This document shows positions 2,034 through 28,807 of a stretch of DNA of 64,000 nt, piece by piece. This DNA is from Terracidiphilus sp. (GTDB taxonomy: Bacteria > Acidobacteriota > Terriglobia > Terriglobales > Acidobacteriaceae). The DNA is taken from assembly GCA_035508975.1 (NCBI GenBank), contig DATJMC010000110.1, forward strand, positions 2,035 through 66,034, written 5' to 3'. Position numbers and translations under genes: made by a program. A model generated the notes under the pieces. It saw only the letters and a program-made list of their open reading frames with translations. It had not been told where the DNA came from and searched no databases. The stretch's first letter is position 1; every line of letters begins with the position of its first letter.

Positions 2034-2822
2034 TTACGGAGCGGCGGCGCTCGCGTGGAACATCGACTCCGTCATCGGAATTCTGGAATTCTCCAGCGGC
2101 GATTCGTGGTGCGTGCGCACGCGGCCGCACGCTTCAGGGGTGTTCGCCATCTGCTTCAGAAAAGTTGAGTAACCGGGATAACCCGGGCGCAAGGTTGACC
2201 AGTAACTTGATCGCGTCAGCAGCGGCTTGCGCTGATTGACGAGTTGATTGTTGAGAATCTTTACCCCGCACAGAAGGTTGTTCCTCGGTTGCAGAATAGT
2301 TTTTTCCGGATCGTGCTCGGGCAGCAACTTGTCGGCGTCCCAGTCGAAATCGCAGCCATAGCGATCAGCGTCCTGGTAAGTGAGTTGTAAGAGGCCCTCG
2401 GCCCGCACCATGCGATGGGTCACCATGTCTACCACCGCCACTTCAGGCTCCGTGTGGCGCACATCGGCATTGGCGCGCAACCCTGCTTCGGCGCCCGCGA
2501 GGGCCTGAAAGAAATAAGCCCAGAAGGCGCGCTTGTCGGCCGGCGAGAGCGAGTTAAATCGCGGGCAGAAGTGTTTCACATCCTTTCCGACCCTTCGCGA
2601 AAGCAGATCGGAAGGAAGATTTTCTTCGATCATTAAGTCCCACGCGGGATCCCATGTGTCGTCATCGCCGAGTTCCGCCTTTTTCTCTGCCAGGGGCGTC
2701 GGAGGCGCCTGCTTCACAGCCGGCTCAAGGGGCGTGACGGGCGGCTGGGAATGATCCAGTTGGCCGCTCTGCGCAAAGAACAGCAGCGCCAGGCCAATCG
2801 ATAAACCCCATGTTTTCGTCAT
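2034..2822 (-). CDS. Secreted lytic transglycosylase (SLT/lysozyme-like) domain protein
   Basis: Signal-like N-terminus MTKTWGLSIGLALLFF. SLT-like motifs in order: ALAGAEAG (catalytic Glu position), GLLQL, ILQPRNNLLCGVKIL. Start chosen at ATG 2822 (2867 possible). Confidence 0.6.
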   Translation of the reverse strand: MTKTWGLSIGLALLFFAQSGQLDHSQPPVTPLEPAVKQAPPTPLAEKKAELGDDDTWDPAWDLMIEENLPSDLLSRRVGKDVKHFCPRFNSLSPADKRAFWAYFFQALAGAEAGLRANADVRHTEPEVAVVDMVTHRMVRAEGLLQLTYQDADRYGCDFDWDADKLLPEHDPEKTILQPRNNLLCGVKILNNQLVNQRKPLLTRSSYWSTLRPGYPGYSTFLKQMANTPEACGRVRTHHESPLENSRIPMTESMFHASAAAP

Positions 2823-2929
2823 CGTCGTTTTCACCTGCCTCGAAGTGTGATGCAGGTGAGAAACCATACGTGAACGATTGATAATGAATGAGTTAGAGTT
2901 CAAAAACCGAGGCAACCATTTTTGCCCAG

Positions 2930-2956
2930 TGTAAGAATTGCGCACTTCGCGCGTCA
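2930..2956 (+). promoter_or_regulatory. Candidate ECF-sigma promoter TGTAAG-N16-CGTCA
   Basis: TGTAAG 2930-2935, 16-nt spacer, CGTCA 2952-2956. It would start transcription just before the SD of the Cys-rich peptide. Confidence 0.5.
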
Positions 2957-2979
2957 GCAGATGCGAAAGGAGGAAAGCC

Positions 2980-3066
2980 ATGCAGACGGATGAAACCGTT
3001 TCTTGCCCCTGCGGCGACGAATGCCCGTGCGGCCCGGTGTGCCCCTGCCCGAAAAGCTGCGACTGA
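2980..3066 (+). CDS. 28-aa metallothionein-like peptide (7 Cys, three CPC motifs)
   Basis: AAGGAGG at 2967-2973, 6 nt before ATG 2980. Translation MQTDETVSCPCGDECPCGPVCPCPKSCD*. All Cys codons are TGC. No aromatic residues. Sits upstream of a Cys-rich ECF sigma factor. Confidence 0.8.
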   Translation: MQTDETVSCPCGDECPCGPVCPCPKSCD

Positions 3067-3082
3067 AACGAGCTCCGCTCAT

Positions 3083-3137
3083 CGAAAACAACAACAGCAG
3101 GCGAAAACAACAACAGGCAGGAGTGCGAGCTCCTGCC
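3083..3137 (+). repeat. 15-bp direct repeat plus 8-bp hairpin between the peptide gene and the sigma gene
   Basis: CGAAAACAACAACAG at 3083-3097 and 3102-3116. GGCAGGAG-tgcgag-CTCCTGCC at 3116-3137. Confidence 0.6.
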
Positions 3138-3150
3138 GCTCTTCTCACCC

Positions 3151-3705
3151 ATGCAAACCAGCACCTTGAATCCGCTGCTTGAGTTGCGCCGCCAGTTCCT
3201 GCGCTTTCTCGAGCGCCGCGTTCACGATCGCGCCGCGTCTGAAGATATTTTGCAGGCCGCCTACACACGCGCGCTCGAAAAGAGCGGCGCGCTGCGGGCC
3301 GAGGAGTCTTCCGTGGCGTGGTTCTATCGCATCTTGCGCAACGCCGTCATCGATCACTACCGTCGGCGTGCGATCGAAGACGCCGCGCTTGCGCGGTGGG
3401 CAATGGAACTGCAAACCGAAACCGCTCCGGAGCCGGCATTGGAGGAAACCGCCTGCCAGTGTATTGCCGGCGCCCTTGATGTGCTTGCGCCCGCCTACGC
3501 GGAACTACTGCGCGCCGTGGATCTGGGCGAAACTTCGCTCTCCGCCTACGCCAAGCAGCAGGGAATTACCGCCGGCAACGCCGCCGTTCGCGCCCACCGC
3601 GCCCGCGCCGCGTTGCGCAAGCAACTCATCCGCTGTTGCGGAACCTGCGCCGAGCACGGCTGCCTGGAATGCAGGTGCCGCGCACAGGTTACGGCGGTTT
3701 CGTAG
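3151..3705 (+). CDS. ECF sigma factor, CorE-like (linker CxC plus C-terminal cysteine-rich domain)
   Basis: sigma2 (SEDILQAAY..WFYRILRNAVIDHYR) and sigma4 (GITAGNAAVRAHRARAALR) regions. ACQC between them. C-terminal CCGTCAEHGCLECRC. Confidence 0.85.
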   Translation: MQTSTLNPLLELRRQFLRFLERRVHDRAASEDILQAAYTRALEKSGALRAEESSVAWFYRILRNAVIDHYRRRAIEDAALARWAMELQTETAPEPALEETACQCIAGALDVLAPAYAELLRAVDLGETSLSAYAKQQGITAGNAAVRAHRARAALRKQLIRCCGTCAEHGCLECRCRAQVTAVS

Positions 3706-3715
3706 ATTCCAGACC

Positions 3716-4948
3716 TCACCCCAGAAAAATCCCTGCGATCGAAGCGGAAATCAGGTTGGCCATCGTTCCTGCCAGCATCGCCCGCACGCCCAGCCGCGCC
3801 AAGTCGTTGCGCCGCTCCGGAACCAGTGCGCCGATCCCCCCGATCTGCATGCCGATCGATCCCAGATTCGCAAATCCGCACAGCGCGAAAGTCGCGATCG
3901 TGAAGGAGCGTGGGTCGAGCGTCGCCTTGTGCGCGCCCAGTGCGATGTAGGCGATCACTTCATTCAGCGCCATGCGCATGCCCAGCAGGTTGCCGATCAG
4001 CCCGCAGTCGTGCCACGGGACGCCGATAAGCCACGCGACCGGCGCAAAGACAAATCCGAGGATTTCGCCCAGGCTCCCGGGGATCCAGTGAAAGCCGTTG
4101 TGCATGTGGATCCAGGTGAGCAGCATGTCGAGCAGCGCAACCAGCGCCAGAAAGCTTATAAGCATGATGGCGACGTTAAGCGCAAGCTTGCCGCCATCGA
4201 TGGTGCCGCGAGCGATGGCCCCAATCAAGTTCTCGTCCTTGTGCTCCTCGGCCTCGGGGATTACTACGCGCCCCTCCGTCGCCGGGACCTCCGTTTCAGG
4301 CACCAGCATCTTCGCCATTAAAATCGTGCCCGGCGAGGTCATGATCACCGCCGACAGCAGGTGGCGCGCTTCAATGTGTTGCGCGATGTACATGGCCATG
4401 ATGCCGCCGGAGACGTGCGCCATGCCGCTGGTCATGATCGTCATCAGCTCGCTGCGCGTCGCCCGGGCAAGAAACGGCCGGATGGTGAGCGGCGCTTCCG
4501 TTTGCCCCATGAAGATCGAGGCTGCGACGTTCATGCTCTCCGCGCCCGAGATGCGCATCGTCTTCAGCATCACCCAGGCCAGCGCGCGAATGATGATCTG
4601 CATGACGCCGATGTGGTAGAGCACGGCGAAGAACGCCGAGATGAATATGATGGTCGGCAGAACCTGGAACGCGAAGATCGATCCAAGGGATGTGTCGGGC
4701 GTGCCCAGCGCTCCAAAAAGCACCTTGGTGCCCGCGGCGGTTGCGCCGAGCATGCTGTTCACCACGTCGCCGGCCCACGCCATCGCGCGCTGCCCAAAAT
4801 CGAAGCGCAGCACAAAATACGCGAAGAGCAGTTGCAGGCTGAGTCCCCACGCCACCGTGCGCCAACGGATGTGACGGCGATCCGTTGAGCCGAGCCACGC
4901 CGCCAAAAGGACAGCCAAGATTCCCAGGACGCCGGTGTATCGCGCCAA
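3716..4948 (-). CDS. nupC: NupC/CNT family nucleoside transporter
   Basis: FAFQVLPTIIF, ASIFMGQTEAPL, FALCGFANLGSIG motifs of concentrative nucleoside transporters. Confidence 0.92.
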   Translation of the reverse strand: MARYTGVLGILAVLLAAWLGSTDRRHIRWRTVAWGLSLQLLFAYFVLRFDFGQRAMAWAGDVVNSMLGATAAGTKVLFGALGTPDTSLGSIFAFQVLPTIIFISAFFAVLYHIGVMQIIIRALAWVMLKTMRISGAESMNVAASIFMGQTEAPLTIRPFLARATRSELMTIMTSGMAHVSGGIMAMYIAQHIEARHLLSAVIMTSPGTILMAKMLVPETEVPATEGRVVIPEAEEHKDENLIGAIARGTIDGGKLALNVAIMLISFLALVALLDMLLTWIHMHNGFHWIPGSLGEILGFVFAPVAWLIGVPWHDCGLIGNLLGMRMALNEVIAYIALGAHKATLDPRSFTIATFALCGFANLGSIGMQIGGIGALVPERRNDLARLGVRAMLAGTMANLISASIAGIFLG

Positions 4949-26995: not shown

Positions 26996-28807
26996 CTAGC
27001 CCTCTACCTCATTCAGCAGAACGTCTTCCTGCACCTGGCTCTTCAAATGTGCGGCCACCTCGCCAATTGCTATCTCCTGCTTGGCTCCGGTTGCGCGCGT
27101 CACGAACTCCACCATTCCATTCGCGACTCCCTTGCCCACCACAACGCGAAAGGGGATTCCCACCAGATCTGCATCTTTGAATTTGACGCCGGCGCGTTCA
27201 TCCCGGTCATCGAGCAGCACATCCATCCCCGCCGCTTCGAGCTCCGCCGCCAGCTTCTCGCCTGTCGTCTTCAGCTTCTCGTCGGTCATATTGGTTACGG
27301 TCACCACCACCGTGAAAGGCGCAATCGACTCAGGTAGCCAGAAGCCGTTCGCGTCGTTGGCCTGCTCGACGGCGGCGGTCAGGATGCGCTCGATGCCGAT
27401 GCCGTAGCAGCCCATGATCGGGGCGACCTCCTTGCCGTTCTCATCCAGCACCCGCGCGCCCATCGATTCCGTATATCTGTAGCCCAGCTTGAAGATGTGC
27501 CCAACTTCGACGGCCTTGCCCACCACCAGCTTTCCGCCGTTGGTGCCTTTCGCAACGCATCGGGCTGATGCGCAGGCTTCTCCCTCGTTCACGCTGCGGA
27601 TGTCCGCGCTCAGGGTCCACGTGAAGTCGCGGCCCGGCGTGACGTTGCGCAAGTGATAGTCGGCCTTGTTCGCGCCGCAGACCATGTTTTTGCGGCCTTC
27701 GAGAGATCGGTCGATCACCACGGTGAGTCCGTCGCCCAGAGGCTGATCCCCGTGTGTCAGCCCGACCGGTCCCAGATAGCCCGCCGGTCCGTTGAAATAC
27801 TGCGACAGCTCCTCGGCCTGCATGGTGCGGAGTTCCGCCCCTCCAATCACGCCCAGAAGCTTGGTCTCGTTCACCTGGTGGTCCCCGCGCAGGAAGGTCG
27901 CCACGCCATGCCACGTGTCCTTGGCTCCGCGCGCGCCGCGCTTGAGCGCCATGTAGGCCACGCACTTGATGTCGCTCGCCGGCGAAATTTTGAAGAACTC
28001 GGCTACATCGCTGATCGCCGCGCATCCCGGCGTATGGACCAGCTCGGGTTTGCCATCGCCGGTCGGCTCCATTTCGCTGACCGGATCGAGGCGCGAAATC
28101 GCCTTCTCAAGATTCGCCGCGTAGCCGCATACCGGGCAGCTTGCAATCAGGTCCTCGCCCGCGTCGGTGTAGACCATGAACTCCTGCGATTGCGACCCGC
28201 CCATCGCTCCCGAATCGGCTTCGACAGAAACAAACTTCAACCCGCAGCGCGTGAAGATCGCGCGATAGACCTTGTCGTGCAGATCGAAGCTCTTGTCGAG
28301 ACCGGCCTGGTTGAGATCGAAGGAGTACGCGTCCTTCATGATGAATTGGCGCACCCGCAGCAATCCGCCCTTGGGCCGCGGCTCATCGCGAAACTTGGTC
28401 TGGATCTGATACCAAATCTGCGGCAGCTGCTTATAGCTGCGCAACTCGTTGCGCGCGACTGCGGTCACGATCTCCTCGTGCGTCATGCCCAGGCACATCT
28501 CCGCACCTTTGCGGTCTTTCAGCCGGAACATGTTGTCGCCCATCGTCGCCCAGCGGCCGCTCTCGGCCCAGGGCTCTTTGGGCAGGATTCCCGGCAAGTA
28601 GAATTCCTGCCCGATCCTGTCCATCTCTTCGCGCACGATCGCAATGATCTTGTTCAGCGACCGCTGCCCGAGAAACAGGTAGTTGTAAAGGCCCGCACTC
28701 AGCTGCCGAATGTAGCCGGCTCGGAGGAGGAACTTGTGACTGGCCACTTCGGCGTCTGCCGGGGCCTCGCGAAGGGTAGGAATAAAAAGCTTCGACCAAC
28801 GGTGCAT
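26996..28807 (-). CDS. proS: Prolyl-tRNA synthetase
   Basis: [24 protein letters not shown], editing insertion, [20 protein letters not shown]. Start at MHRWSKLF. Confidence 0.96.

Follow-up and report, generated by a model that had tools for sequence, protein, structure and literature searches.

The window analysed here, i.e. the whole stretch of 64,000 nucleotides (nt) taken from contig DATJMC010000110.1 of a Terracidiphilus sp. assembly (GCA_035508975.1; positions 2,035 to 66,034 of the forward strand), carries two small genes on its forward strand: a cysteine-rich small open reading frame (sORF) and, directly downstream of it, a gene for a CorE-like sigma factor of the extracytoplasmic function (ECF) type. 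The pair is preceded by a predicted ECF-type promoter at 2930-2955, composed of a -35 element TGTAAG at 2930-2935, a 16-nt spacer and a -10 element CGTC at 2952-2955. The Shine-Dalgarno sequence AAGGAGG is read at 2967-2973, 6 nt 5' of the ATG of the sORF, which extends from that ATG at 2980 to the TGA at 3066; a GC-rich hairpin follows at 3116-3137, and the sigma gene, at 3151-3705, begins 84 nt after the sORF stop. The promoter and the hairpin between the genes go beyond what had been described by the first-pass annotation, which proposed a metallothionein-like peptide coupled to a metal-activated sigma factor and against which our results are set below.

The peptide, the sigma factor and the hairpin between their genes

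The sORF is 87 nt long and translates as MQTDETVSCPCGDECPCGPVCPCPKSCD, a peptide of 28 residues with cysteines at positions 9, 11, 15, 17, 21, 23 and 27 (7/28 residues, 25%), in which three CPC units recur with a period of 6 residues and in which F, W, Y, H and the motif CxxC do not occur. On re-reading the sequence, the length of the frame, its seven cysteines and the placement of AAGGAGG 6 nt before the ATG were all as the first-pass annotation had claimed; its description of a seven-Cys repeat, however, holds for the window but not for the family, as six of these residues are conserved and the seventh, C27, is found in the window and in one related locus (L008) only. Within the window clade the six cysteines are invariant, with synonymous interchange between TGC and TGT, and the alignment yields a conserved core C-P-C-x3-C-x-C-G-P-x-C-x-C-P-K, whose non-Cys positions are constrained too (G, P and K are conserved and the spacing is fixed). 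The ratio of nonsynonymous to synonymous substitution (dN/dS) is below 1 in every computable pair of this clade, 20 of 21 pairs, with dS near saturation. The sORF is a genuine gene, and purifying selection acts on it.

In its small size, its high content of Cys in CxC motifs and its lack of aromatic residues the peptide has the composition of the metallothionein class. Searches of Pfam and NCBIfam with E values up to 10 gave no match for the window peptide and seven relatives, one relative of 45 amino acids (aa) reached Metallothio_Euk at a non-significant E=3.5, and membership of a metallothionein family is not indicated by the models of these two databases, among them those for SmtA and the eukaryotic families. 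Metallothioneins are the best PDB matches of the profiles built from the short and the long class of these peptides (wheat Ec-1, 2kak, E=0.028; 1qjl, E=2.3), although neither match is significant. No signal peptide was seen in the 28 residues. The long-class profile retrieves a single protein among 5.8 billion predicted proteins, from which it follows that genes of this kind are practically never called; the peptide family is undescribed and almost never annotated, and the 28-codon gene is missed by gene finders. The sequencing runs that carry the sequence are wetland and soil metagenome DNA runs, with no RNA run among them.

When the assembly to which the window belongs was scanned with the criterion used for related loci (given below), 33 matches were obtained in 8 Mb of strand, among which the window sORF and a secreted Cys-rich protein are the only genuine-looking ones. 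The latter, a 57-aa open reading frame on the minus strand of contig C36 (G000, 27486-27659), has a strong AAGGAG site, a signal peptide and a tail rich in CC pairs that includes …GCCTNCCQDKCGDRCCQGGCTAACCQGK, and is apparently exported.

The product of the second gene, a protein of 184 aa, matches Pfam Sigma70_r2 over residues 12-74 (38.1 bits against a cut-off of 24) and, just under the cut-off of 25.7, Sigma70_r4_2 over residues 103-155 (22.5 bits), and it exceeds the cut-off of the NCBIfam sigma70-ECF model (62 bits versus 42.9). Its linker bears a CxC motif, C102-Q-C104, which almost all of the homologues examined have at that position, and its tail contains six Cys in the arrangement C162 C163 GT C166 AEHG C171 LE C174 R C176, a C(C)GxCxxHxCxxCxC motif that is kept across the homologues. 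Sigma-2 and sigma-4.2 domains without any further domain, a linker CxC, a C-terminal domain with about six Cys and the absence of an adjacent anti-sigma gene are the sequence features by which CorE-like (ECF44) factors are defined (PMC4937300, PMC6851896), and the sigma factor has all of them; the first-pass annotation had thus been right about the position of this gene, its linker and tail, and its CorE-like character. The closest NCBIfam equivalog is SigZ (TIGR02959, E=1.8e-27), whose 96 bits lie far below the equivalog cut-off of 169; SigZ of Bacillus subtilis, a member of ECF238 subgroup 9, has only two C-terminal Cys (PMC7826278).

Between the two genes, the hairpin GGCAGGAG-TGCGAG-CTCCTGCC forms a stem of 8-9 bp that ends 13 nt before the sigma ATG and is not followed by a U-tract. 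In the minimum free energy (MFE) fold its arms pair only with each other, and the sORF stop lies 50 nt before it. A hairpin of -14 kcal/mol or lower within 70 nt after the sORF stop is found in 42 of 45 sORF-bearing loci and in 56 of the 225 pieces taken from these loci as controls, a difference whose p-value is inflated because the loci are related. The stem sequence is conserved in the window clade, and a quite different sequence occupies the same place in other clades; covariation is uninformative, since the stem is almost invariant within the window clade. A Shine-Dalgarno sequence is not recognisable before the sigma gene. We infer that the hairpin and the weak start together hold the output of sigma factor below that of peptide, be it by partial termination or by stabilisation of a short peptide mRNA.

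Conservation of the pairing

The first-pass annotation had suggested that sORFs be sought upstream of CorE-like sigma genes in Acidobacteriota and other phyla, and such a scan recovered the pairing repeatedly. Our set comprised 66 loci with relatives of the sigma factor from species-representative genomes, mostly of Acidobacteriaceae and including the cultured Acidicapsa, Bryocella and Terriglobus, and a locus was scored when a Cys-rich sORF with a ribosome-binding site ended no more than 450 nt upstream of the sigma gene on the same strand. Under this criterion 43/66 loci are positive, and overall 43-45 of the 66 have such a frame upstream, with 20-50 codons and 6-14 Cys. Elsewhere in the same loci, on both strands, the background of such sORFs is 0.004-0.011 per interval of that size, i.e. 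about 0.01 expected by chance versus the 43-45 observed. Cultured bacteria with the module include Acidicapsa dinghuensis 4GSKX (L016), Bryocella elongata DSM 22489 (L037), Terriglobus sp. ADX1 (L033) and Acidobacteriaceae bacterium ZG23-2 (L017). The distance from the end of the sORF to the sigma gene is 14-160 nt in all but one locus (L046, 310 nt), and the start is almost always an ATG with an AAGGAG-type ribosome-binding site, a Shine-Dalgarno sequence of (A)AGGAG type being present 5' of the start in nearly all related loci. In two further loci, L029 and L039, the sORF is divergent from the sigma gene and each has a promoter copy to itself.

Of 200 Myxococcota genomes sampled evenly, 19 have a homologue of the sigma factor, amounting to 24 loci, and in 10/24 of these the arrangement and the motif recur, with a Cys-rich sORF immediately upstream of the sigma gene and on its strand. 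Conservation of the pairing thus spans Acidobacteriota and reaches into Myxococcota. In a tree of the sigma factors, linkage to a peptide occurs on both deep halves and the peptide classes track the sigma clades, a pattern that would be consistent with long co-inheritance of peptide and sigma factor.

Some loci depart from the common arrangement. Two further loci, L030:2887-3537 and L043:2854-3800, both from metagenome-assembled genomes (MAGs), have the Cys-rich sORF joined in frame to the sigma gene, the join in L030 following an apparent frameshift; these joins are either natural fusions or assembly errors. At L048:2823-2960 (the same site as L079), in a MAG of Nannocystaceae, the sORF has no Shine-Dalgarno sequence and CGTC stands approximately 12 nt before the ATG, an arrangement suggestive of a leaderless peptide mRNA. 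Two loci on short contigs of MAGs labelled Acetobacteraceae (L024 and L031) are near-identical to acidobacterial modules; a binning error is the likely reason for the label, transfer being possible. Lastly, on the minus strand of L041 (1285-1500) there is a 72-aa open reading frame with 12 Cys, a GDCCVFC motif and no Pfam match, about 1.5 kb from a CorE-like sigma gene that is accompanied by an ATPase with a YHS domain.

A shared predicted promoter and its outputs

Each of the 45 sORF-bearing loci has the motif TGTAA[G/T]-N16-CGT[C/G/T], placed 33-81 nt 5' of the sORF ATG, the spacer being 17 nt in two of them and 16 nt in the rest. With a weight matrix trained without the window, in which the lowest-scoring training site has 21.9 bits, the window promoter obtains 35.2 bits, and the scan of the 4.0-Mb assembly brought up no further target above 16.3 bits, a value below every training site. 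The single YHS-domain gene of the assembly, on contig C6, has no such site. A CorE-dependent promoter, as outlined in the literature, has AAC within its -35 element and, 16-18 nt away, a -10 element with a conserved G (PMC3107203). The motif is laid out like an ECF promoter and fits this outline, with the qualification that AAC itself occurs only in the TGTAAC variants of Myxococcota, among whose loci they are frequent, and that TGTAAG or TGTAAT takes its place in the window and in the acidobacterial loci. The proposal of the first-pass annotation that the sigma factor transcribes its own operon fits a motif that stands before every sORF and occurs once in the assembly.

Loci without an upstream sORF are informative with respect to what else this promoter may drive, as in them the same motif stands immediately after the sigma gene, before a gene for either a YHS-domain protein or a P1B ATPase. 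The YHS proteins are 60-62 aa long, always start with MCCC and match PF04945 with E=1e-16; their promoter lies directly after the sigma stop in L047 (gene at 3576-3758), L052, L054, L058, L059, L063 and L068. The eight YHS-protein loci represent one sigma clade without upstream peptide, seven of them forming a clade in the tree and the eighth, L068, having been left out of it because its sigma frame is truncated. The P1B ATPases behind the motif carry N-terminal YHS and HMBD domains, and those of L041 and L003 likewise start with MCCC. Four complete ATPases scored 562-614 bits against the copper family TIGR01511 (cut-off 397) and 394-417 bits against the cadmium family. A single genome, G006, has three CorE-like paralogues (L003, L005 and L007), each with a copy of the promoter, which serve one peptide gene and two YHS-ATPase genes. 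Cys-rich peptides, YHS proteins and copper ATPases would thus be, in effect, interchangeable outputs of this sigma group; since the same promoter drives YHS proteins and copper ATPases in sister loci, the peptide is most likely a metal-handling effector, and the sharing of the promoter with YHS proteins and copper-type P1B ATPases makes a copper-type metal the likeliest signal.

Just upstream of the -35 element, at 2910-2927, the window has a small hairpin whose sequence is GGCAACCATTTTTGCC. Five relatives of the clade (L010-L013 and L043) preserve the stretch GCAACCAAA, which occurs with one mismatch in the window, L014 and L015, is absent from L008 and L009 and is not conserved in other clades. 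The hairpin might serve a second regulator as its site, act as an UP-like element or terminate antisense transcription. A match to a sigma-70-type promoter at 2856-2885 was discarded, as it is not conserved and chance gives a mean of 0.3 matches per region.

The module is flanked upstream by a divergent gene (2034-2822, minus strand), whose 262-aa product has an N-terminus resembling a signal peptide and falls into no Pfam or NCBIfam family, and downstream by the convergent nupC (3716-4948, minus strand); neither of these adjacent genes is anti-sigma-like, as the first-pass annotation had noted, and no maturase, radical-SAM enzyme or transporter gene of the type that accompanies ribosomally synthesised and post-translationally modified peptides (RiPPs) was found adjacent to the sORF. 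Farther upstream, a 535-aa protein without Pfam or NCBIfam family is encoded at 393-2000 on the minus strand. The flanking genes are conserved together with the module among the closest relatives only. A minus-strand open reading frame at 2034-3164 was rejected as a gene running across the sORF, because the homology of relatives to the 262-aa protein starts at its residue 1, with the ATG at 2822.

A probable self-limiting metal response and its alternatives

We consider it probable that the promoter, the peptide gene, the hairpin and the sigma gene constitute a two-gene, self-regulated metal-response module, with a copper-type metal as its most likely signal. The CorE-like factor would sense a thiophilic metal, most likely copper or silver and less probably zinc or cadmium, directly through its linker CxC and its Cys-rich C-terminal domain, without which CorE and CorE2 cannot sense metal (PMC4937300), and once active would transcribe from TGTAAG-N16-CGTC to give peptide and more sigma factor. 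The peptide would be strongly translated because its Shine-Dalgarno sequence is perfect, and less sigma factor would be produced, since its gene lacks a Shine-Dalgarno sequence and has a conserved hairpin just in front of it. The six conserved cysteines would make the peptide a metallothionein-like buffer of cytoplasmic metal, the binding of which would lower free metal and switch the sigma factor off again, thereby producing a self-limiting pulse. The circuit proposed in the first-pass annotation, in which chelation by the peptide may stand in for an anti-sigma factor, is plausible on these data and has gained a much firmer footing. In the assembled part of the genome the peptide would be the sole recognisable non-regulatory product of the regulon. 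We are close to evenly divided, with a slight leaning towards doubt, on the more general proposition that several phyla harbour a large and almost unannotated family of metallothionein-like peptides of 20-60 aa, each tied through a common promoter to a CorE-type sigma factor of its own, so that the pair may generate pulses autonomously (the sigma factor giving positive and chelation by the peptide negative feedback) and the peptide may sometimes, the window genome included, be its entire output.

Several points weigh against this reading. That the sigma factor itself uses the motif TGTAAG-N16-CGTC we infer from their co-occurrence, and the CorE2 gene of Myxococcus xanthus is not under the control of CorE2 itself (PMC4937300). 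The metal would be identified by the neighbours found in sister clades and not by the window locus, and a single Cys in CorE2 can switch specificity from Cd to Cu (PMC4937300). There is no significant match to any metallothionein family in Pfam, NCBIfam or the PDB profiles, and the weak PDB matches may reflect composition alone. The assembly is 81% complete, and the statement that the operon is the only target covers its assembled part. Lastly, the counts and p-values overstate independence because the loci are related to one another.

An alternative would be that the main task of the peptide is to set the activity of the sigma factor as its direct partner, either as a chaperone that donates or withdraws metal or as an inhibitor of the anti-sigma kind, joined to the CxC and the Cys-rich domain of the factor in a common metal-thiolate cluster. 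The persistent adjacency of the genes, the way in which peptide classes follow the sigma clades, the presence of CxC motifs in both proteins and the lack of a known anti-sigma factor for CorE-like sigmas (PMC4937300, PMC8999054) would all be expected from such a partnership; co-inheritance in one operon is nevertheless enough to explain the tree pattern, and the existence of whole sigma clades with no peptide, having YHS proteins or ATPases behind the same promoter instead, means that the peptide is not an obligatory partner. Furthermore, the wide variation in length and Cys number (20-50 aa, 6-14 Cys) is a better fit to a sponge than to a specific interface, the strong ribosome-binding site of the peptide gene versus none for the sigma gene suggests that peptide is made in excess, and a peptide of 28 aa with neither His nor CxxC cannot form an anti-sigma domain of the zinc-binding (ZAS) type, which has approximately 80-90 aa and the motif HxxxCxxC. 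We therefore hold a direct partnership to be rather unlikely. The metallothionein-like buffer that we favour could also operate with the same circuit logic on a ligand not of the copper type, such as Zn or Cd, arsenite or antimonite, or thiol and redox stress. CorE2 does respond to Cd and Zn and changes its specificity with a single Cys (PMC4937300), and a six-Cys peptide could accommodate a cluster of the M(II)2Cys6 type; in the loci examined, however, the same promoter precedes genes for YHS proteins and for ATPases that score best as copper-type, and arsenic or CDF (cation diffusion facilitator) genes were not seen beside the acidobacterial modules, whose flanks were not screened systematically. 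On this balance another ligand is unlikely.

The position of the sORF upstream of the sigma gene, with a hairpin between them and a run of Cys codons, could also be that of a cis-acting leader, i.e. an upstream open reading frame (uORF) whose translation, for instance through ribosomes halting at Cys codons under a shortage of Cys-tRNA, would govern how far the hairpin is read through and hence sigma expression, while the peptide itself had no function. Selection nevertheless extends beyond the Cys codons to conserved G, P and K residues and to their spacing, the stop codon precedes the hairpin by 50 nt, the MFE fold offers the hairpin arms no competing pairing, and elsewhere the same promoter drives ordinary effector genes. 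In L029 and L039, moreover, the sORF cannot be a leader because it is divergent from the sigma gene and has a promoter of its own. Attenuation leaders lie in cis upstream of the gene that they regulate, with competing RNA structures and an otherwise unconstrained peptide, a combination that these loci do not display, and we deem this explanation very improbable. Equally improbable is the proposal that a modified or exported product is made from the peptide as its precursor, be it a RiPP, a copper-chelating chalkophore or a peptide of the ranthipeptide/SCIFF type. It is small and Cys-rich, and copper-binding RiPPs, e.g. methanobactins, do exist; against this stand the absence of an adjacent maturase, radical-SAM enzyme or transporter gene, the lack of a leader/core architecture and of a signal peptide, and the failure of NCBIfam precursor models to match. 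A metallothionein-like metal buffer remains the function that we consider probable.

CorE and CorE2 of M. xanthus, classified as ECF44 and now placed within ECF238, share with the window sigma factor the sigma domains, the CxC motif, the six-Cys domain and the lack of an anti-sigma factor. CorE controls copper P1B ATPases, as the sigma factors of sister loci described here also appear to do, whereas the predicted target in the window is the peptide-sigma operon alone; autoregulation of this kind would be a further difference from CorE2. Sigma factors of the CorE-like kind are described as one-protein systems, of which CorE and CorE2 are the only ones characterised experimentally (PMC6851896, PMC8999054), and a Cys-rich peptide partner of either is not described in papers dealing with them (PMC3107203, PMC4937300, PMC6851896, PMC8999054), nor is one mentioned in ECF reviews or the paper that reclassified the ECF factors. 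A full-text literature search, with most subscription journals outside its coverage, found no publication in which a CorE-like or other ECF sigma factor is paired with a Cys-rich peptide.

The wiring of a metal sensor to a small Cys-rich sequestering protein does have precedents in SmtB-SmtA of Synechococcus and RicR-MymT of Mycobacterium tuberculosis, and MymT was likewise a non-annotated small open reading frame originally (PMC7558416, PMC10141476). SmtB and RicR are repressors of the ArsR and CsoR families, respectively, whereas here the sensor would be a sigma factor encoded on the same transcript as the peptide, and the window peptide, about half the size of SmtA and MymT, matches the family model of neither. 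The coupling of a metal sensor to a metallothionein-like peptide is thus known; what appears to be new is that the sensor is a CorE-type sigma factor and that the peptide belongs to an undescribed family.

The first-pass annotation had compared the peptide with the copper thionein of Neurospora, a likeness that stands as regards size and Cys spacing and does not extend to demonstrable homology with any metallothionein family. The copper metallothionein of Neurospora crassa, wheat Ec-1 and the mammalian beta-domain all resemble the peptide in size, in a Cys content of about 25%, in CxC units 2-4 residues apart and in the lack of aromatic residues. No significant homology links these small eukaryotic metallothioneins with the peptide, and the likeness may have arisen by convergence and be due to composition.

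These findings add to the CorE-like sigma factors a conserved peptide partner that gene callers miss, and they provide this sigma group with a defined promoter and a minimal regulon, both as predicted here. They suggest a simple circuit in which one transcript would yield both sensor and chelator and which could find use as a compact metal biosensor and sponge. They also imply that inventories of metal homeostasis that are derived from annotation systematically miss a component made up of Cys-rich peptides. Metallothioneins are regarded as rare in bacteria, being essentially limited to the SmtA/BmtA family and MymT (PMC7558416). Should the family of pulse generators proposed above be real, metallothioneins would not be rare but common in bacteria, and for some ECF sigma factors a chelator would take the functional place of the anti-sigma factor.

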